Under the pieces are notes generated by a model that worked only from the letters and a program-made list of their open reading frames with translations, made no database searches and was not told where the DNA came from. Below, in pieces: positions 2,082 to 64,000 of a stretch of 64,000 bases of DNA (position 1 is its first letter; each line of letters begins with the position of its first letter). The translations under genes and the position numbers were made by a program. The DNA lies in the NCBI GenBank assembly GCA_015057635.1, contig SVEB01000050.1, positions 5,682 through 69,681 on the forward strand, written 5' to 3'. The stretch comes from Lachnospiraceae bacterium. GTDB lineage: Bacteria > Bacillota > Clostridia > Lachnospirales > Lachnospiraceae.

Positions 2082-3653
2082 CTAGTTTAAGGGTGGGGTG
2101 AGGCCGAGGATTTCGTAGATGAGGGGCATGTCTAGAGATTCTCGGAGGATAGAGGCTAAATGGTCGTACTGGGATTCTTTGTAGGAATCGTAGGACTGGA
2201 TGGCGGAGGCGTCGTAAGTGAGGCCTTTTCGGGTGTATAACAGATCGAGCACAGCTTTTTGCATGGATTCGGTGTCAAAGATTCCATGGAGGTAGGTTCC
2301 GGCTATGTTGGACAAAACGCTGCCATCTGATTTAGCGGTTGCTGATTCTGTGGTGACGGTAATTTGAGTAAAGGATGGACAGGATGACGGATGTGTTTGA
2401 TCAGCGACATTGGCTGACGGAATGTCTTCTGAGGAAAGCACTGGGGTGGAGATGCCCATGTGGACTTCATAACCGGTTACCGGAATATTGGAGAGAGCCG
2501 CATATGGACCTTCTATTGTTCCGGTATGACCTGTGGCCTGGGTCATGACTTTGGAAGTTGTGAAGGTTGTTTTTATCGGGAGAAGTTCCATGCCTCGTAT
2601 ATGACGGATGCCTTCTACCATCTCACTGTCATCAATGCTCATGCCTAACATCTGATAGCCGCCACAGATTCCGAAAATTAAGGTGCCTTTGGCGGCCTCT
2701 TTTTTGATGGCGGCTTCTAAGCCGTTCTCTCTTAGCCAGATTAGATCCTGTATGGTGCTCTTGCTGCCTGGCAGGATGATCATATCCGGAGATTTTAGTT
2801 CGGATACATCGGATACATAATGAAGACCGACACCTTCTAAGTGTTCTAAACTATAAAAATCCGTAAAGTTTGAGATTCTTGGGAGTTTGATGACTGCAAT
2901 CTCTACCGGAGCGACTTCTCTTTTCTTATGGAAACGCTCGGTAAGACTGTCTTCGTCTTCGATATCTACGTTCATATAAGGAACGACACCGGCACATGGG
3001 ATATGGATTTTTTCATAAATCATATCCAGACCTGGTTTTAGAATGGTAGCGTCTCCCCGGAATTTGTTGATAATCGTTCCTTTGATGCGGGCACGTTCCT
3101 CCTCTTCTAATAGCATGACCGTTCCGTAAAGCTGGGCAAATACCCCGCCGCGGTCGATATCGCCAGCTAAAAGGACCGGAGCATCCACAAGCTTGGCCAT
3201 GCCCATATTGACGATGTCATCGGCTTTTAAGTTGATCTCTGCCGGCGATCCTGCTCCTTCTATTACAATGATGTCGTATTCTTCGGCAAGGGAATCATAG
3301 GCTTCTTTAATTTTGGGAATCAGGCTTTTTTTCATCTTAAAATAATCTCTTGCCTGCATATTGCCCTGTACTTCACCACATACAATAACCTGAGACCCCA
3401 TATCGGTGGTTGGCTTTAATAAGATGGGATTCATACGGACGCTTGGCTTGATTCCTGCTGCCTCAGCCTGCATGACCTGGGCACGTCCCATCTCAAGCCC
3501 TTCTTCCGTAATATAGGAATTCAGCGCCATATTCTGCGATTTGAACGGAGCGACTTTATAGCCGTCCTGCTTTAAAATACGCAAAAGCCCTGCCACAAGA
3601 AAACTCTTTCCTGCATTGGACATGGTGCCCTGTATCATAATTGATTTTGCCAT
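2082..3653 (-). CDS. cobQ: Cobyric acid synthase
   Basis: [54 protein letters not shown]. Confidence 0.97.
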
Positions 3654-10239: not shown

Positions 10240-10499
10240 GAAATAGCCCGAGATGTATGCGGTAATACAGCCGCATACCATGCCGACGTGCTTTGCACAA
10301 TTTCTTTTCGGATGTTCGGACACATAAGCAAATAAAAGAGCATAGGCTTCTTTGCCTATCAGACAGGAATTTACTGTCTGATAGGCGAAGAAGCCTATGC
10401 TCTTTTTGTTCGTTATAAGTCGGACACTCCGGAAAAAATCGCACAAGGCACGCCGGCATGATATGCGGCTGTATTACCTTGCGTATTCCGGCCCATTTC
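10240..10499. repeat. Long palindromic intergenic element, copy A (REPIN/MITE-like)
   Basis: Arms ggtaatacagccgcata (10261) ... tatgcggctgtattacc (10478); core ctatcagacag(10356-10366)-gaattta-ctgtctgatag(10374-10384). Confidence 0.9.
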
Positions 10500-27974: not shown

Positions 27975-28297
27975 CTTAATCCCTCCCGCAGAACTTGTAT
28001 ACATGAATACTTTCTATAATAAATACCATGTATTCCAAAATTAATCAAATACTTACTTTAAATCAATACCACGTCACAGCGTCACATTGCTTTCTCGCTC
28101 CATCTCGACTGCCTTTATTTATACTGTCTTCCACTCCTCTATCCTGCGCTCAATGCCTCCCCTCATCAATCCCACTCCCTGTTCCTTTGCATCCATCCCC
28201 TACCTTCAAAATCCTTCCCCCCGCTCCAAAGTCCTTCCAACTCTCTTTAAAATCCTCCCCAAACCCTTCCTCCGGTATTCTCAGTAAACAAGCGAGC

Positions 28298-28512
28298 GAA
28301 TCGGCCAAGGAAAGAAGAAGAACCTGTATGCGTGGTCGCCTAGTTCCAAATGTCCGGCTCATAACGAACAAAAGACTCTGCTTCCTTTGACTATCAGACA
28401 GTGTATTTTACTGTCCGATAGTCAAAGGAAGCAGAGTCTTTTATTCATGTGTCCGAACATTTGGAACTAGGCGGTCGTGCCTACAGGCTGTCCCTCTTTC
28501 CTTGTCCGATTC
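28298..28512. repeat. Long palindromic intergenic element, copy B
   Basis: Core ctatcagacag(28391-28401)-tgtatttta-ctgtccgatag(28411-28421); perfect 17-bp stem gactctgcttcctttga / tcaaaggaagcagagtc; outer arms reach gaatcggccaagg / ccttgtccgattc. Confidence 0.9.
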
Positions 28513-28526
28513 CCTATTCCGTATTT

Positions 28527-48076: not shown

Positions 48077-48287
48077 GGTCCCCTGAACGCCAATAGGCCG
48101 CGGGACTTGGAGCATCGGATGTTCGAAATGTCCGGCTCATGACGCACAAAAACAGCAATATTCTTTGAATAGCAGACAATTTATTGTCTGATAGGCAAAG
48201 AATATTGCTGTTTTTGTCCGCTCATGCGTCCGAACATTTGAACATCCGATGCTCCAAGTCCCGCGGCCTATTGGCGTCCAGGGGACC
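48077..48287. repeat. Long palindromic intergenic element, copy C
   Basis: Core atagcagacaa-ttta-ttgtctgatag (48169-48194); near-perfect outer arms of about 50 bp, ggtcccctgaacgcc...gttcgaaa / tttgaac...caggggacc. Confidence 0.92.
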
Positions 48288-59038: not shown

Positions 59039-59080
59039 AAAATACCTAAGGTCCATACGTATATGGAACTTAGGTATTTT
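59039..59080 (-). terminator. Terminator of tRNA copy 1
   Basis: aaaatacctaaggtccata-cgta-tatggaacttaggtatttt. Confidence 0.75.
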
Positions 59081-59116
59081 CTCGGGTTGGGCTGTTCGTA
59101 AATCACGATCAATCAA

Positions 59117-59188
59117 CAGCTCGTAGGGGAATCGAACCCCTGATTCCGCCGTGAGAGGGCGGCGTCTTAACCGCTTGACCAACGAGCC
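59117..59188 (-). tRNA. tRNA-Glu(CTC), copy 1, CCA not encoded
   Basis: GGCTCGTTGGTCAAGCGGTTAAGACGCCGCC-CT-CTC-AC-GGCGGAATCAGGGGTTCGATTCCCCTACGAGCTG cloverleaf. Confidence 0.96.
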
Positions 59189-59201
59189 TCGCTACTCCTT
59201 T

Positions 59202-59230
59202 ATGATATACTATTTAAAAGGAAATTGCAA
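59202..59230 (-). promoter_or_regulatory. Promoter of tRNA copy 1
   Basis: TTGCAA-N17-TATCAT. Confidence 0.7.
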
Positions 59231-59267
59231 GCACTTTTTTAATTTTTTTCTATTTTTTGAAAAATAA

Positions 59268-59309
59268 AAAATACCAAAGATCCATACGTATATGGAGCTT
59301 AGGTATTTT
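59268..59309 (-). terminator. Terminator of tRNA copy 2
   Basis: aaaataccaaagatccata-cgta-tatggagcttaggtatttt. Confidence 0.7.
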
Positions 59310-59345
59310 CTCGGGTTGGGCTGTTCGTAAATCACGATCAGTCAG

Positions 59346-59417
59346 CAGCTCGTAGGGGAATCGAACCCCTGTTTCCGCCGTGAGAGGGCGGCGTCTTAAC
59401 CGCTTGACCAACGAGCC
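59346..59417 (-). tRNA. tRNA-Glu(CTC), copy 2, CCA not encoded
   Basis: Identical to copy 1 except one variable-loop base (GGAAACAG vs GGAATCAG). Confidence 0.96.
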
Positions 59418-59430
59418 TTGCTACTTCTTT

Positions 59431-59569: not shown

Positions 59570-60193
59570 TTGTATTATCCGTTAACTCATTATAAATGGA
59601 AGGAGAATCAATATGCAAGTACCGAAAAGTTTAAGGGTTCGCTTACAAAGTTTCATGTAGATGAAGATGTGATTTCACAGATTAACGAAGGTTTTGAAGA
59701 TGTTACGGACAAAGCTCCGAAAAAGAAGAAGGCAGCTTATTTTAAACATGCCGTCGATGTCATGAACGAACAGATGGATCTGGATAAATTCCAGGAAATC
59801 TTTGAATGGAATTCCTGTTGTAAGAGCGGAGCAAGAGAAAAGGCATCCAAAGCCTTTGCCAAAGAAAATGCGAACGCTACTCTCGATGAAAAATTAGAAA
59901 AGATCAAATCTGTCCCTTATATGGGACAGCCTGTCTATAATCATAACGGGACAATCACTACATATGCTGTCAGCTGGTTCGATGGTGAGAAATACCAATG
60001 CGCCTGCTCAAACTTCAGCCACCTCAAACGGGATTACGACATATCCAAAAACTACTGCTTCTGCTGTGCCGGCCACTTTAAATATCACTACGAAATCATG
60101 CTGGGCCTCAAACTAAAAACACTAGAAATCGTCTCCTCCCCTTTAGACAGCAACGGCAAAAACCCTTGCGTCATCCGCTACCAGATCCTCTAG
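59570..60193 (+). CDS. DUF6144-like Cys-rich protein; 5' end uncertain, possibly frameshifted
   Basis: SCCK, CACS, CFCCAGH, P.DS....C pattern. The TTG start at 59570 has no RBS; the ATG with a strong RBS (59613) is out of frame. Confidence 0.7.
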   Translation: MYYPLTHYKWKENQYASTEKFKGSLTKFHVDEDVISQINEGFEDVTDKAPKKKKAAYFKHAVDVMNEQMDLDKFQEIFEWNSCCKSGAREKASKAFAKENANATLDEKLEKIKSVPYMGQPVYNHNGTITTYAVSWFDGEKYQCACSNFSHLKRDYDISKNYCFCCAGHFKYHYEIMLGLKLKTLEIVSSPLDSNGKNPCVIRYQIL

Positions 60194-60216
60194 GATAAAA
60201 ATAAGAAAGCCGGCTA

Positions 60217-60407
60217 AAAAAGCAGCTGTGGGCGGCAGGGGATATATTTTTTCAGCTGTACGGCATCAAGGCGGACAAAAAGCAGGAGAATCTCTGAATA
60301 GCAGACAGTGCTTTCCTGTCTGATAGTCGGAGATTCTCCTGCTTTTTGTCCGAGCTTGTGACGAACAGCGAAAAATATATATCCTCCACCGCCCACAGCT
60401 GCTTTTT
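60217..60407. repeat. Long palindromic intergenic element, copy D
   Basis: Core atagcagacag-tgctttc-ctgtctgatag (60298-60326); stem gcaggagaatctctga / tcggagattctcctgc; outer arms aaaaagcagctgtgggcgg / ccgcccacagctgcttttt. Confidence 0.92.
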
Positions 60408-60480
60408 CCAGGCGGCACGCTCACCGCTCACACGCACATAAATGTGGGGGCAGGGGCGGGGGGTGCGACACCCTCCCTAG

Positions 60481-63400
60481 CTACGAAAAGAAGTCCATCA
60501 GCGACATCTGGTTGCTGAGTGGGAGGTCGCCCATGAGGCCTAGGTCGCCCATTAAGTCTACGACGGTCTGGGAGATCTTACATCGCGTCTTAAAGTCATC
60601 ACGGGATAAGAACTTGCCATCCTTAACCGCTTCCACTACCTGGTCGGCCGCCTTGTCACCAAGACCTTCGATTGAGTCTAAGGATGCCATCAGCTTGCCG
60701 TCCACGATCTGGAAGTGATGCGCTTTCGCGGTATAAATATCGATTGGAACGAATTCAAAACCTCTCGCATACATTTCCTGAACGATCTTCATATCCTTCA
60801 CCACATCTTCTTCCTTCTTTGAAAGCTTCTGAGCTGGATCATTGGATGCCATTCTTCTCTTAAACTCTGCCATATGATATTCCAAACGTTCCCTGCCTAA
60901 GCACATCAGCTCATAGTTGAATGCAGTAGCACGGATACTGAAATAAGCACAGTAATAGGCGAGCGGATAATAAACCTTAAAGTAAGCAATTCGAAATGCC
61001 ATCATAACGTATGCGCAAGCATGTGCCTTCGGGAACATGTACTTGATACGCTTACAGGACCAGATATACCAGTCCGGCACGCCATTCGCAAGCATCTCCT
61101 CTTCCATTTCCGGAGTAAGACCTTTACCCTTACGAACGGATTCCATGATTTTGAATGCATGACCGTTCTCAACGCCCATATGAATCAGATAAACCATGAT
61201 ATCATCTCGGGTACAGATTGCAGTAGACAGGGTACATTTTTCTTCCGCGATCAGCGTCTGGGTATTGTTAAGCCATACGTCCGTACCGTGGGAAAGACCC
61301 GAGATACGGATCATATCGGAAAAGCTCTTTGGCTTTGTATCACGAAGCATCTGCATAACGAAGTCCGTACCAAGTTCAGGAAGTCCTAAGGAACCAAGAT
61401 CACAGCCGCCGATATCTTCCGGCTTGATGCCAAGCGCCTCTGTGGATTCAAAGAGGGAAATAACCTTCTTATCATCCATTCGGATTTCTTTCGCATCAAG
61501 GCCCGTCAGATCTTCTAACATTCGGATCATGGTCGGATCATCGTGTCCCAGAATATCGAGCTTTAGTAAGTTATGATCGATGGAATGGTAATCGAAATGA
61601 GTCGTTACCGTTTTGGTTGTCATATCGTTTGCAGGACGCTGTACCGGTGTGAAGGAATAGATCTCCTCACCGTGAGGAAGTACGATAATACCACCCGGAT
61701 GCTGTCCGGTTGTACGTCTTACCCCTACACATCCGCCTACAAGACGGTTTACCTCGGCAGTTCTTTTATGAGTGCCGCGTTCTTCATAATACTTCATAAC
61801 CATACCGAATGCGGTTTTATCCGCAAGTGTACCGATGGTTCCAGCACGGAAGGTATGGCCCTTTCCGAAGATAACCTCCGTGTAATCATGGGCTTTTGCC
61901 TGATATTCACCGGAGAAGTTAAGATCGATATCGGGTTCCTTATCACCGTTGAATCCAAGGAAAGTTTCGAACGGAATGTTGTGTCCGTCTTTCTTTAGCA
62001 TCTTTCCACATACCGGACATACCTTATCGGGCATATCGCAGCCGGAGCTCTGAGAGTAGCTCTGTACTTCTTCTGAATCAAAGTCAGAATAGAAGCAGCT
62101 ATCACAGTAATAATGTGCCGGGAGCGGATTAACTTCGGTAATACCGGACATAGTCGCAACGAAAGAAGAACCGACCGAACCACGGGAACCTACTAAGTAT
62201 CCATCTTCATTTGACTTCCACACCAGCTTCTGTGCAATGATATACATTACGGCGAAACCATTTGTAATAATGGAATGAAGCTCATGCTCCAGTCTTTCTT
62301 CTACCGGCTTCGGCAGGTTCGGACCATACATGGAATGCGCCTTGTCGTAACAGATATTTCGAAGTGTCTTATCGGAATCCTCGATGACCGGAGGACATTT
62401 ATCCGGACGTACCGGTGAAATCTTCTCAATCATATCGGCAATCTTATTCGGATTGGTGATAACTACTTCTTCCGCTAACTCTTTGCCAAGATAAGAGAAT
62501 TCACTTAACATATCAAGCGTTGTTCTAAAATAAAGAGGCGCCTGCTTATCCGCATCACTAAACCCTTTGCTTGCCATAATGATACGGCGGTATACTTCAT
62601 CTTCCGGATTTAGGAAATGAACGTCACCGGTCGCAACGGTAAGCTTTCCAAACTCACGTCCTAAGTTGATGATCCGCTTATTGATATCCTTAAGTTCATC
62701 CATGGAACTAATATCATATTTCGGACTTTCAATCATAAACTCATTGTTGCCAAGAGGCTGAATCTCAAAATAATCATAGAACTTCGCAAGTCTTGTGATT
62801 TCTTCTTCCGGCTGGTTTCTAAGAATCGCCTGATACAGTTCTCCCGCTTCACAGGCGGATCCAATTAAAAGACCTTCCCTGTATTTCGCTAAAAGTGACT
62901 TTGGAATACGAGGACGTCTAGCAAAATAATCAATATGAGAAAGGGAAACCATACGGTACAGATTTACTCGTCCAATATCATTCTGGCATAAGATAATGGC
63001 ATGGTAAGTCGGCATCTTCTTAATAACCGCAGGATCGATCTCATCGAATCCATTTACATCGGCTAGCGTATACGCTCCCTTTTCCTTTAGCATCTCAATA
63101 AATTTCACATAAATTTCTGCGGTACATCCTGCATCATCTACCGCACGGTGATGGCTTTCTAACACTACGCCGAGCGCTTTTGCTACGGTATCCAGCTTAA
63201 AGTTATGAAGATCCGATAATAGGACACGCGCAAGCGCTACCGTATCCACAACCGTGAAGTCGGTCTCAATTCCCATAAACTCTGCTTTCTTCGTGATAAA
63301 TCCAACGTCAAAGGAAGCGTTATGAGCTACCAGCACACAGCCTTTACAGAACTCTAAGAATTCGGGCAGAATCTTTTCAATGGTCGGATATCCCATAACC

Positions 63401-64000
63401 ATATCATCGGTAATGCTAGTCAGCTTCTCGATTTCAAATGGAATCGGTATTTCCGGATTGATAAAGGTAGAATACTTATCGGTAATCTTTCCATTTACTA
63501 CCTTTACCGCACCAATTTCAATAATCTTATCTTTAATTGGTCCAAAACCGGTTGTCTCGATATCAAATACAACGCAAGGATCATCTAATGTCTGCCCTTT
63601 ATCTCCGACTACCAGTTCCTTCATGTCATCCACTAAGTATGCTTCCATACCGTAAATGATCTTGAAGTTCTTGCAGCGTTCCATCTTCTCCGGATCATCC
63701 TTATAATCCTTTGGATTTAAAGCATGGTTTGCTTCCGGGAATGACTGCACCACACCATGATCGGTGATCGCCACAGCCGGATGCCCCCATTCAAATGCAG
63801 TCTTTACAAGTTCCTTTGTATCCACAACCGCATCCATATCGCTCATCATCGTATGGGCATGAAGCTCTACTCTCTTCTGATCGTAAGAATCCACTCTCTT
63901 CGTTGTGAAGTCTGGAATCTTCTTAATACCAACAACAGATGTGATCGCGATTTCTCTGTCATACTTATCAAGAAGCGCCATACCCTTCATACGGATAAAT
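60481..64000 (-). CDS. polC: DNA polymerase III, PolC-type (5' end outside the window)
   Basis: RVELHAHT.MS.MD PHP domain with inserted DEDDh exonuclease (VFDIETTG), GSRGSVGSS, PDIDLNFSG, YMFPKAHA. The frame stays open past 63990 (...FIRM). Confidence 0.98.
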   Translation of the reverse strand, partial: FIRMKGMALLDKYDREIAITSVVGIKKIPDFTTKRVDSYDQKRVELHAHTMMSDMDAVVDTKELVKTAFEWGHPAVAITDHGVVQSFPEANHALNPKDYKDDPEKMERCKNFKIIYGMEAYLVDDMKELVVGDKGQTLDDPCVVFDIETTGFGPIKDKIIEIGAVKVVNGKITDKYSTFINPEIPIPFEIEKLTSITDDMVMGYPTIEKILPEFLEFCKGCVLVAHNASFDVGFITKKAEFMGIETDFTVVDTVALARVLLSDLHNFKLDTVAKALGVVLESHHRAVDDAGCTAEIYVKFIEMLKEKGAYTLADVNGFDEIDPAVIKKMPTYHAIILCQNDIGRVNLYRMVSLSHIDYFARRPRIPKSLLAKYREGLLIGSACEAGELYQAILRNQPEEEITRLAKFYDYFEIQPLGNNEFMIESPKYDISSMDELKDINKRIINLGREFGKLTVATGDVHFLNPEDEVYRRIIMASKGFSDADKQAPLYFRTTLDMLSEFSYLGKELAEEVVITNPNKIADMIEKISPVRPDKCPPVIEDSDKTLRNICYDKAHSMYGPNLPKPVEERLEHELHSIITNGFAVMYIIAQKLVWKSNEDGYLVGSRGSVGSSFVATMSGITEVNPLPAHYYCDSCFYSDFDSEEVQSYSQSSGCDMPDKVCPVCGKMLKKDGHNIPFETFLGFNGDKEPDIDLNFSGEYQAKAHDYTEVIFGKGHTFRAGTIGTLADKTAFGMVMKYYEERGTHKRTAEVNRLVGGCVGVRRTTGQHPGGIIVLPHGEEIYSFTPVQRPANDMTTKTVTTHFDYHSIDHNLLKLDILGHDDPTMIRMLEDLTGLDAKEIRMDDKKVISLFESTEALGIKPEDIGGCDLGSLGLPELGTDFVMQMLRDTKPKSFSDMIRISGLSHGTDVWLNNTQTLIAEEKCTLSTAICTRDDIMVYLIHMGVENGHAFKIMESVRKGKGLTPEMEEEMLANGVPDWYIWSCKRIKYMFPKAHACAYVMMAFRIAYFKVYYPLAYYCAYFSIRATAFNYELMCLGRERLEYHMAEFKRRMASNDPAQKLSKKEEDVVKDMKIVQEMYARGFEFVPIDIYTAKAHHFQIVDGKLMASLDSIEGLGDKAADQVVEAVKDGKFLSRDDFKTRCKISQTVVDLMGDLGLMGDLPLSNQMSLMDFFS

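Follow-up and report, generated by a model that had tools for sequence, protein, structure and literature searches.

A strand-polar shift in base composition surrounds every well-preserved copy of a family of long palindromes in the genome of a gut Lachnospiraceae bacterium. The family comprises 251 oriented palindromes located just 3′ of stop codons, and one of them, element D, lies beside polC in the window, the stretch of 64,000 nucleotides (contig SVEB01000050.1 of assembly GCA_015057635.1) that was analysed. On the element-sense strand, the fourfold sites of the pooled copies form a sharp C-rich, G-poor patch of about 120-150 nt upstream of the element (skew −0.65) and a G-rich, C-poor arm downstream of it (fourfold skew about +0.5), which falls monotonically to the baseline over about 2-2.5 kb, through genes of both strands. 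The cause would best be sought at the level of DNA, since fourfold sites on either strand and non-coding DNA are affected without motif or conservation. Judged from the sequence comparisons described below, a local, element-anchored, polar bias of mutation or repair has about an even chance of being the right explanation.

The palindrome family

Elements A (10261..10478, plus strand), B (28295..28515, minus strand) and C (48077..48287, minus strand), delimited by nhmmer matches and palindrome limits, belong to the same family as element D (60217..60407, minus strand), which is an imperfect palindrome with 92-nt arms, 83% complementary, and a 7-nt centre. The palindromes of the family span 212 nt in the median and 450 nt at most; their arms of about 100 nt enclose a centre of 4-9 nt, and they consist of a conserved core of about 146 nt and copy-specific complementary arms. 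The family consensus carries TATATATTTTCC...GGAAAAATATAG close to the core ends, and the outer stem of element D, AAAAAGCAGCTGTGGGCGG...CCGCCCACAGCTGCTTTTT, is copy-specific. The median distance from the stop codon of the upstream gene to the copy is about 20 nt. Copies occupy 70 of the 298 convergent gaps as against 6 of the 285 divergent ones, and in co-directional cases the element is oriented as the upstream gene in 82%. About 7% of the genome is situated within 600 nt of an element centre.

Copies are present at orthologous sites in a sister species separated by a fourfold K of about 0.85, and these comparisons indicate that the family is ancient and vertically persistent across species. 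The identity of the core between species is 0.77 versus 0.57-0.60 at fourfold sites; such conservation above the neutral level suggests that the palindromes are probably functional. Between species the arms have changed at roughly the neutral pace, yet within each species they are complementary, as would be expected if a hairpin forms in DNA and template switching occurs. G·U pairs in the stems show a modest sense-strand excess (884 vs 716), which does not separate an RNA-level hairpin from a DNA-level one. The search of Rfam with the element hairpin gave only spurious miRNA-like matches, all under the gathering scores.

The locus of element D

The sense strand of element D is the minus strand, as for polC, and the 3′ end of polC abuts the element in the sense orientation. 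The polC gene (60481..63990, minus strand) was recognised by the Pfam domains DNA_pol3_finger and HHH_6, and its 5′ end extends past the start listed for the open reading frame. Its last 28 codons (60484..60567, minus strand) make up a short C-rich, G-poor patch on the upstream side of element D, and the spacer between the polC stop and the palindrome (60408..60480, minus strand), with its C-rich runs on the polC strand (caccccccgcccctgccccca), is the non-coding portion of the same patch. The DUF6144-like gene (59570..60193, plus strand) is located on the downstream side, antisense to the element-sense strand, and its last 64 codons (59999..60190, plus strand) show, read in antisense, the long downstream halo of element D, which is G-rich and C-poor. 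That both flanking genes are rich in third-position C (C3) follows from their places: polC falls in the short upstream patch, and the downstream arm covers the DUF6144-like gene in antisense.

The original prediction of a halo started from hand counts at these two genes, and the counts proved exact. In the DUF6144-like gene, the final 64 sense codons have C at the third position in 40 cases, A in 14, T in 6 and G in 4, which places the gene third among 2965 genes by C3 (binomial tail 1.8e-15); the genome-wide third-position C is 0.176, and the last 64 codons contain 11.9 C on average. The last 28 codons of polC end in C 15 times, in G 8 times, in A 4 times and in T once (binomial tail 1.8e-5). 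At least 15 C in the last 28 codons occur in 53 of 3110 genes, and this stretch is the gene-wide maximum of polC, other stretches of the gene having at most 12. It had also been claimed that the plus strand switches from C-rich to G-rich at the hairpin. The GC skew of this strand does change from −0.34 (60000-60199) to about 0 (60400-60699) and, on the left of element D, is back at the baseline by about 59850; thus the switch is real, but only relative to a regional baseline of −0.1 to −0.25.

Shape and composition of the halo

The predicted strand-specific halo anchored on the palindrome accompanies practically every well-preserved copy. Genome-wide, it is the strand reading towards the element that is C-rich on both sides, and the decay of the halo with distance is clear when the 251 copies are pooled. 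In the 257 genes that have a copy within 300 nt downstream, C3 amounts to 0.32, 0.40 and 0.28 in the last three 16-codon bins, compared with 0.21 further upstream in the same genes and 0.16-0.18 in other genes, and genes without a nearby element do not show the 3′-end rise. Gaps without an element have a flat skew and no halo. Ordinary hairpins (arms up to 28 nt) and terminators were rejected as the cause, as no halo was found around them.

The shift is seen at fourfold sites in either gene orientation, is weak at codon positions 1 and 2 and is strongest in non-coding DNA, where the tracts are of biased composition without motif or sequence conservation. SD-like, GGA and G-run/G4 motifs in the G-rich tract are all near expectation, with geometric G-run lengths, and orthologous tracts of the two species are identical at 0.56 of positions versus 0.55 by chance. 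The search for homology of flanking tracts between copies found none, which rejects the idea that the flank is carried along by the element, and the halos lie in the flanks of approximately 250 unrelated genes. An outer degenerate palindrome or pairing between flank and arm was likewise rejected, the RNA duplex energies being equal for matched and mismatched flanks.

The sign of the skew across the element follows the pattern −, +, −, +, flipping at both stem bases and at the centre, so that the arms of the element have the sign opposite to that of the flanks. Longer and better-preserved palindromes have a stronger halo (rho 0.24-0.27, p ~1e-4). The long arm follows the orientation of the element in both replication contexts, and not the neighbouring transcription, and does so even where the element runs against its flanking genes (27 copies); replication direction was rejected as its determinant. 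A similar reach of a few hundred bp on both sides had been expected, and this part of the prediction fails: the halo extends about 150 nt upstream and about 1-2 kb downstream, as set by element orientation. On the G-rich strand reading away from the element, G is up, T and C are down and A is flat.

Comparison with related genomes

Orthologues without the element lack the codon bias of the window genome. Four DUF6144-like orthologues have 14, 5, 4 and 4 C at the third positions of the last 64 codons, and 89 polC orthologues have a mean of 5.2 and a maximum of 12 C in the last 28 codons. The difference is repeated in 28 orthologue pairs with a relative genome without the element, G011 (Wilcoxon p = 7.5e-6). 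In the sister species the same halo appears, often around orthologous copies, and it holds when only orthologue-anchored codons are used; the composition of the upstream patch is also kept there (skew −0.67 and −0.69). Close strains have both the element and the codons in common with the window genome. Relatives at about 98% exist for the DUF6144-like locus only, on contigs of about 1 kb, and the gene has few differences from them, 4 in the 5′ half and 10 in the 3′ half. The metagenome scan yielded no close strain, and the clusters other than that of the DUF6144-like locus were singletons.

These comparisons bear on whether any special process is needed, since the pattern might in principle result from chance, expression-linked codon usage, a recombinant or horizontally transferred mosaic, a preference of the element for inserting where the skew already switches, or sequence that the element brings along. 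The extreme ranks and binomial tails, the confinement of the patches to parts of genes, the within-gene gradients on both strands, the flat element-free orthologues, the non-homologous tracts and the sharing of element and codons by close strains make this extremely improbable, even though genes upstream of elements have a higher overall C3 (0.21 vs 0.175) and 177 of the 279 extreme-skew tracts in the genome are away from any detected copy. At seven loci where a copy is detectable only in the sister species the skew is, moreover, largely shared (all-site skew 0.17 in the sister species vs 0.12 in the window genome), which leaves the causal order at short evolutionary range without support. Nevertheless, the comparisons of orthologues, gradients and element-free gaps have already largely refuted an explanation without a special process. 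Expression-linked codon usage in particular was rejected because of the within-gene patches, the antisense gradients and the absence of a clear correlation of halo strength with expression proxies of the upstream gene.

Substitution rate and spectrum

The fourfold divergence K between the window genome and the sister species is 0.70-1.08 in the halo bins and 0.80-0.87 in the background, a rise of at most about 1.25-fold. As the halo K matches the background, it seems that the equilibrium composition has been shifted at an approximately normal substitution rate. The original prediction was different: a dedicated enzyme, e.g. an HUH nickase, would nick the hairpin, and outward error-prone synthesis would cause hypermutation, with an A>G and C>T signature, over a few hundred bp to either side. 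The C-rich strand reading towards the element on both sides genome-wide agrees with that, the flips of skew at the stem bases and the centre look as if synthesis began at the stem bases, and the intrinsic polarity of the element would suit a strand-specific nick. With the divergence of the halo at the background level, there is no sign of hypermutation, and no fast process is needed, since the copies are ancient. The asymmetric reach (about 150 nt vs about 2 kb) is likewise at odds with this scheme, and the spectrum is not transition-like, the net change being a gain of G and a loss of T and C with A flat, which differs from the result of transitions alone or of cytosine deamination in single-stranded DNA. 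Such deamination should leave the exposed strand with less C and more T, but on the G-rich strand T falls together with C, and G rises.

The only HUH candidates in the genome are two Y1-transposase genes, both IS200/IS605-type tnpA; neither is flanked by an element pair, and they are not RAYT-like partners of the family. Taken together, these results make the nickase scheme very unlikely. What stands of the original interpretation is a DNA-level, strand-specific, palindrome-anchored halo; hypermutation, the proposed spectrum, symmetry and the HUH enzyme do not.

Transcription or selection on RNA as possible causes

The polarity of the long arm, which extends with the element in the sense direction only and has a decay length typical of read-through, could point to transcription. 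A sense transcript leaving the element, by read-through or from an element promoter, might form R-loops or leave the non-template strand exposed along 1-2 kb and so skew mutation or repair on that strand. Positive GC skew favours R-loops, as established for eukaryotic terminators, and the effect might therefore be self-reinforcing. Genes upstream of the elements are, however, transcribed at least as much and have an ordinary skew of +0.1 to +0.2, and the halo does not clearly correlate with the expression proxies of these genes. Deamination of the non-template strand should increase T, and no such increase is seen; a consensus scan of element D found no sigma-70-like promoter, and the baseline fourfold skew of the genome (about +0.2) tracks the replication strand, not the transcription strand. 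We regard a transcription-linked asymmetry as quite unlikely.

The short upstream patch allows another explanation, in which the composition of the RNA is under selection. On this view the element would act as a Rho-assisted, bidirectional terminator or as a 3′-UTR module, and transcripts arriving from either side would need a C-rich, G-poor, rut-like tract before a pausing hairpin. The patch of about 120 nt starts right at the G-rich arm of the palindrome, contains 0.395 C and 0.083 G at the fourfold sites 60-119 nt upstream of the palindrome edge in the pooled copies, and keeps its composition in the sister species. The position of the element directly after stop codons, its orientation with the upstream gene in most co-directional cases, the presence of a rho gene and the conservation of the core above the neutral level are also in agreement with a terminator. 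The downstream arm fits such selection poorly: it is graded and 1-2 kb long, and co-directional downstream genes, whose sense RNA is G-rich, are affected as much as convergent ones, which a need for rut does not explain. In addition, the non-coding tracts have no motif structure, the two sides of convergent pairs differ by element orientation, and a clear correlation with expression proxies is lacking. Selection on RNA appears unlikely.

A proposed polar bias at the DNA level

A mutation or repair bias at the DNA level is argued for by the distance decay, the flat controls, the element-free orthologues, the repetition in the sister species, the motif-free tracts, the dependence on the palindrome and the polarity, and also by the divergent yet complementary arms, the presence of sbcCD and the absence of a clear correlation with expression proxies. 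The bias would depend on the polarity of the element itself and on how intact its palindrome is. Its most plausible form would be recurrent processing of an extruded hairpin or cruciform at the stem base, where a nick or break would be followed by resection and by re-synthesis of the strand reading away from the element. If this re-synthesis were carried out by a polymerase or pathway that over-inserts G, a shifted equilibrium could be reached over a long time at an approximately normal rate, not by hypermutation. The palindromes, with their arms of about 100 nt, are long enough to extrude, and among hairpin nuclease genes the genome contains sbcD and an adjacent sbcC-like gene, the sbcC match being below the curated cut-off.

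Some observations stand against this DNA-level bias. The substitution rate in the halo is not raised, which fits a modest bias but is just as compatible with composition being under weak selection or a fixation bias, and the net change, G rising while T and C fall, is unlike any textbook bacterial spectrum. Break repair predicts an approximately two-sided effect with some dependence on replication direction, while the halo is polar with the element. The sharp upstream patch of about 120 nt, its rut-like placement and the presence of Rho also weigh against it, as does the skew that the window genome largely retains at the seven loci where a copy is detectable only in the sister species.

A more specific and rather speculative version, which we think improbable, is that the palindromes are sites of a programmed strand-specific DNA transaction. 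Nicking, priming or restart at the stem base would lead to one-way re-synthesis of about 1-2 kb of one strand, frequently enough to set the local base composition; the palindromes would be comparable to a plasmid single-strand origin or primosome assembly hairpin, but on the chromosome. Were it true, a repeat family would be constantly altering silent sites, and to a slight extent proteins, in hundreds of neighbouring genes, essential ones among them.

Comparison with known systems

In yeast, genes lying as far as 8 kb from a fragile inverted repeat mutate more when the repeat breaks (Saini et al. 2013, PMC3681665), and in E. coli the mutation that accompanies double-strand breaks is highest within 2 kb and arises by resection and the filling of gaps (Shee et al. 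2012, PMC3607216). The halo is similar in that a palindrome alters its flanks over kilobases with distance decay, on a scale matching the 2 kb of E. coli, and the proposed route is also resection with error-prone gap filling. The difference is that these are laboratory increases in rate, two-sided and independent of orientation, whereas here there is an evolutionary footprint at an approximately normal rate, polar and with a net gain of G. Quasipalindrome template-switch mutation (Lovett laboratory; e.g. PMC7202029) would explain arms that change at a neutral-like pace yet are complementary in each species, but it acts inside the repeat and does not by itself explain the skew of the flanks.

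The downstream arm resembles an exaggerated leading-strand skew (+0.5 vs the genomic +0.2), and the change from C-rich to G-rich across the element is similar to that of replication GC skew. Unlike the switch at a replication origin, it has a kilobase scale, occurs at about 250 repeats and is set by element orientation, not by fork direction. The upstream patch resembles the C-rich, G-poor tract of about 80 nt of a Rho-dependent terminator, being rut-like in size, position and composition in a genome with rho, but we know of no rut sites mirrored by a G-rich gradient of 1-2 kb downstream that ignores gene orientation. DGR-like systems are characterised by a reverse transcriptase, a template/variable repeat pair and adenine-specific changes, as opposed to a compositional halo flanking about 250 unrelated genes.

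As a high-copy palindrome 3′ of genes, enriched in convergent gaps and vertically persistent, the family is similar to REP/REPIN-RAYT, BIME, ERIC, Correia and RUP-type MITEs. REPs and REPINs are hairpins of 20-40 nt in inverted pairs; here a single long palindrome of about 210 nt has a conserved core and co-varying copy-specific arms. Our search of the literature on REPs and REPINs found no report of a compositional halo around them. A single-copy RAYT-like partner was not found, the PF01797 search of the genome matching only two genes. One (C34:2906-3265) is followed by a tnpB-like ORF of 443 aa, forming a tnpA-tnpB unit of the IS200/IS605 type, and has one element copy about 290 nt upstream, in the usual post-gene position; the other (C115:365-727) has no element nearby.

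With a mutational halo, the whole genome would serve as a natural record of how non-B DNA sets a bias of mutation or repair locally in bacteria, a bias that has both a strand and a direction. The codon usage, the GC skew and even the amino-acid content beside the repeats would be by-products of DNA mechanics, not of selection, with a bearing on codon-bias analyses, skew-based origin analyses and analyses of horizontal gene transfer. If it is selective, gut Clostridia possess a composite terminator architecture comprising a rut-like tract, a giant hairpin, a second hairpin and a G-rich tract. Either reading lends itself to experiment, since a copy can be relocated or turned round and the genome offers 250 internal replicates.

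The DUF6144-like gene was delimited from the ORF list and its homologues, which show a conserved Cys-rich protein of 193 aa with identity of up to 74% across the full length. The Pfam search of this protein gave no DUF6144 match and no Pfam domain. The normal start of the gene is the ATG at 59614. In the window genome, a 1-nt deletion in codon 2 (close strains ATGCCAAGT, window ATGCAAGT) leaves only a TTG-started frame of 207 aa open.

Codon composition at element D and across the repeat family

Two genes converge on element D, an imperfect palindrome of 191 nt (window 60217-60407; arms of 92 nt, 83% complementary) oriented with polC: a DUF6144-like ORF on the plus strand (59570-60193) and polC itself on the minus strand (60481-63990). 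The original prediction held that the codons of both genes had been rewritten by a hypermutation system anchored at the hairpin, and a recount reproduced its hand counts exactly. Third positions sum to C40 A14 T6 G4 over the final 64 codons of the DUF6144-like gene and to C15 G8 A4 T1 over the final 28 of polC, the whole-genome third-position C content (C3) being 0.176. By C3 of the last 64 codons, the DUF6144-like gene ranks 3rd among 2965 genes (binomial tail 1.8e-15). At least 15 C in the final 28 codons, as in polC, occur in 1.7% of genes, and the C3 maximum over polC falls in its last 28-codon window. Close strains from pig-gut metagenomes (~98% identity) have these codons together with the element.

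A Pfam search with the DUF6144-like protein returned no match. The 193-aa protein is nevertheless conserved, and alignments with homologues extend through the C-terminus at identities of up to 74%. Codon 2 of the gene has lost one base (window 59614-59620; ATGCAAGT vs ATGCCAAGT in close strains), reading ATG CAAGT in the window and ATG CCA AGT in four close metagenomic strains. This puts the normal, RBS-linked start out of frame and leaves open only a TTG-started frame of 207 aa that has no RBS. The deletion, also found in one other contig (L018), marks the gene as a recent pseudogene unless it is a homopolymer error.

The codon shift at this locus is a genome-wide rule rather than a local oddity. 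Across the 4.23-Mb draft genome the palindrome family has 251 copies, occupying 70 of 298 convergent, 151 of 2578 co-directional and 6 of 285 divergent gaps. The median distance from the stop codon of the upstream gene is 74 nt to the HMM match and ~20 nt to the edge of the full palindrome. In co-directional contexts, 82% of copies share one orientation relative to the upstream gene, whose strand in this majority orientation defines the element-sense strand. The 257 genes with a copy within 300 nt downstream show C3 of 0.316, 0.398 and 0.284 in their last three 16-codon bins and 0.21 farther upstream, compared with 0.16-0.18 in all other genes; third-position G falls to a minimum of 0.137 in genes so placed. 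Most of the top 25 genes by 3′-end C3 have a copy directly downstream. Gene calls came from an ORF-based set made for the analysis, and the main gradients were recomputed from codons anchored on orthologues.

Genes and orthologues without the element

Profiles were flat in co-directional and convergent gaps with no element within 3 kb, and ordinary hairpins, their arms no longer than 28 nt, had no halo, as the strand-specific shift in base composition flanking the copies is called here. The same-genus genome G011 contains no copy in the 1.2 Mb examined, and its 28 reciprocal-best orthologues of element-adjacent genes lack the 3′-end rise (delta C3 -0.017 vs +0.124 in the element-adjacent genes; Wilcoxon p = 7.5e-6). 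Among 89 polC orthologues of other species, all of them element-free, the last 28 codons contain on average 5.2 C and at most 12. C counts in the final 64 codons of four element-free orthologues of the DUF6144-like gene are 14, 5, 4 and 4. At short evolutionary range, the presence/absence comparison comprised 7 loci only.

Structure and polarity of the halo

On the upstream side the halo is a sharp patch, with C 0.395, G 0.083 and a GC skew of -0.65 at fourfold sites 60-119 nt from the palindrome edge, and baseline is regained by 180-240 nt. Downstream, the fourfold skew of the element-sense strand is ~+0.5 and decays monotonically to baseline over ~2-2.5 kb, so the decay with distance expected from the original prediction is present when copies are pooled. 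The gradient is similar in genes of the same strand (+0.54 to +0.17) and of the opposite strand (+0.50 to -0.02), and therefore the downstream arm belongs to the DNA strand and not to the gene reading direction. The short upstream patch of element D falls in polC, and the DUF6144-like gene lies antisense within the long downstream arm, which explains the larger effect in the latter.

On balance, downstream fourfold sites gain G (+0.10 to +0.18) and lose C and T, with A flat. Non-coding tracts by elements display the same change on a larger scale (A 0.37, C 0.10, G 0.30, T 0.22, vs A 0.35, C 0.14, G 0.21, T 0.30 in element-free gaps), and a slight shift of the same kind is seen at codon positions 1 and 2. 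The palindrome itself has the opposite sign, with a G-rich 5′ arm and a C-rich 3′ arm, so that the skew along the sense strand runs -,+,-,+ and flips at each stem base and in the centre. No motifs were found in the G-rich tracts, no homology of tracts between copies, and no specific pairing of the flanks with each other or with the arms.

Replication direction was deduced from the regional bias in gene strand. In both replication contexts, with the downstream arm replicated after the element or before it, this arm stands ~+0.3 above baseline at 250-900 nt, and the element-upstream side has no long arm in either. The baseline fourfold skew is ~+0.2 on the majority-gene strand in genes of either orientation, tracking the presumed replication strand and not the transcription strand. 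Halo strength increases with palindrome preservation and length (rho 0.24-0.27). Expression proxies of the upstream gene do not predict halo strength. In the 27 copies opposing both flanking genes the long arm is again element-downstream.

A second small hairpin without a U-tract (tCRCAATGCGTTTc - loop - GAAACGCATTGYGa) lies ~6 nt past the palindrome in 51 of 233 copies, always element-downstream and never upstream (e.g., contig C58:142093-142125 and C89:6640-6675). It has ~73 genomic sites, ~70% of them adjoining an element, and is kept in the sister species and absent at element D. Halo strength does not track its presence.

Age of the family and substitution rate

The family is also present in the sister species G001 (an uncultured Lachnospiraceae MAG), with a downstream skew of +0.39 at 200-400 nt, and 16 of its 23 copies with syntenic flanks have a copy at the orthologous site in the window's genome. 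The fourfold identity of the two genomes is only ~0.57-0.60; the family therefore arose before a deep divergence, and its halos are equilibria of long standing. Core identity between the species is 0.77, above the neutral level. The downstream non-coding tracts are 0.56 identical vs 0.55 by chance, their composition being kept and their sequence not conserved.

The outer arms diverge at an approximately neutral level (0.58-0.60 identical vs 0.52 by chance), and in the examples inspected by eye they are still complementary within each species. Compensatory change, or template switching in a DNA hairpin, would account for this. It suggests that the arms evolve in concert at a pace close to neutral, which is what template switching at a hairpin would produce. 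Both the copy-specific outer arms and the variable inner stems differ between the species and, by eye, change jointly on both arms, e.g., tgga/tcca against gggg/cccc; one orthologous pair of this kind is C119:38913-39030 and L202.

The rate was estimated only from codons with the first two bases conserved in alignments of the two species. Fourfold divergence K is 0.70-1.08 in halo bins vs 0.80-0.87 in the background, which is incompatible with hypermutation by orders of magnitude. By our estimate, a doubled flux into G raises K by only about one quarter, compatible with the measured values.

Possible origin of the halo

The data point to a DNA-level, element-anchored mutation or repair bias rather than to a selected RNA or protein-binding signal, because the graded, strand-specific shift extends over kilobases irrespective of gene orientation, the tracts lack motifs and sequence conservation, the halo depends on an intact long palindrome, and arm co-evolution is typical of hairpin template switching. 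A selective component at the upstream patch is a serious rival, since the patch is sharp and resembles a rut site, and the genome contains a rho gene. Transcription or R-loops would offer a third explanation.

Under a DNA-level bias, the closest experimental parallels are fragile inverted repeats in yeast (PMC3681665) and E. coli double-strand breaks (PMC3607216), where break-linked mutagenesis fades over kilobases. For the hairpin nuclease SbcCD, the genome has sbcD and an adjacent sbcC-like gene whose match to sbcC falls short of the curated cut-off. However, the halo was not assigned to this class because its substitution rate is near normal, it is polar and not two-sided, and its net change is a gain of G, unlike deamination-type or known polymerase spectra. 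A search of the literature on local skew or mutation halos at REP, REPIN or palindromic repeats found no bacterial description. The dedicated HUH nickase proposed as an example left no sign, both Y1 transposase genes being IS200/IS605-type tnpA. One belongs to an AT-rich IS200/IS605-type unit (C34:2906-4629; tnpA followed by a 443-aa tnpB-like ORF) inserted ~290 nt past an element copy, and the other is located at C115:365-727.

Other observations

At the site of a weak copy (C11:112730-113002), a relative with ~82% identity (L206:11006-11222) has only a short, bidirectional terminator-like hairpin with a purine-rich tract alongside. Its loop retains half of the core apex (GATCAGACAGTG), and it may be a collapsed element. 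Among the matches listed, the core-apex pattern has a single exact match outside the genus, in a Ruminiclostridium sp. MAG (L187; JAZNST010000006.1:257-292), and the remaining genome-collection matches all lie in one Lachnospiraceae MAG.

The gene originally labelled cobQ (window 2082-3653; C35:7763-9334, minus strand) is among the top 25 by 3′-end C3 (36/64), and nhmmer found no adjoining element copy; either the halo has outlived a decayed copy or another structure is the cause. Two minus-strand tRNA genes (59117-59188 and 59346-59417) lie within a direct duplication (window 59040-59420) with a period of ~229 nt that includes the flanks of both.
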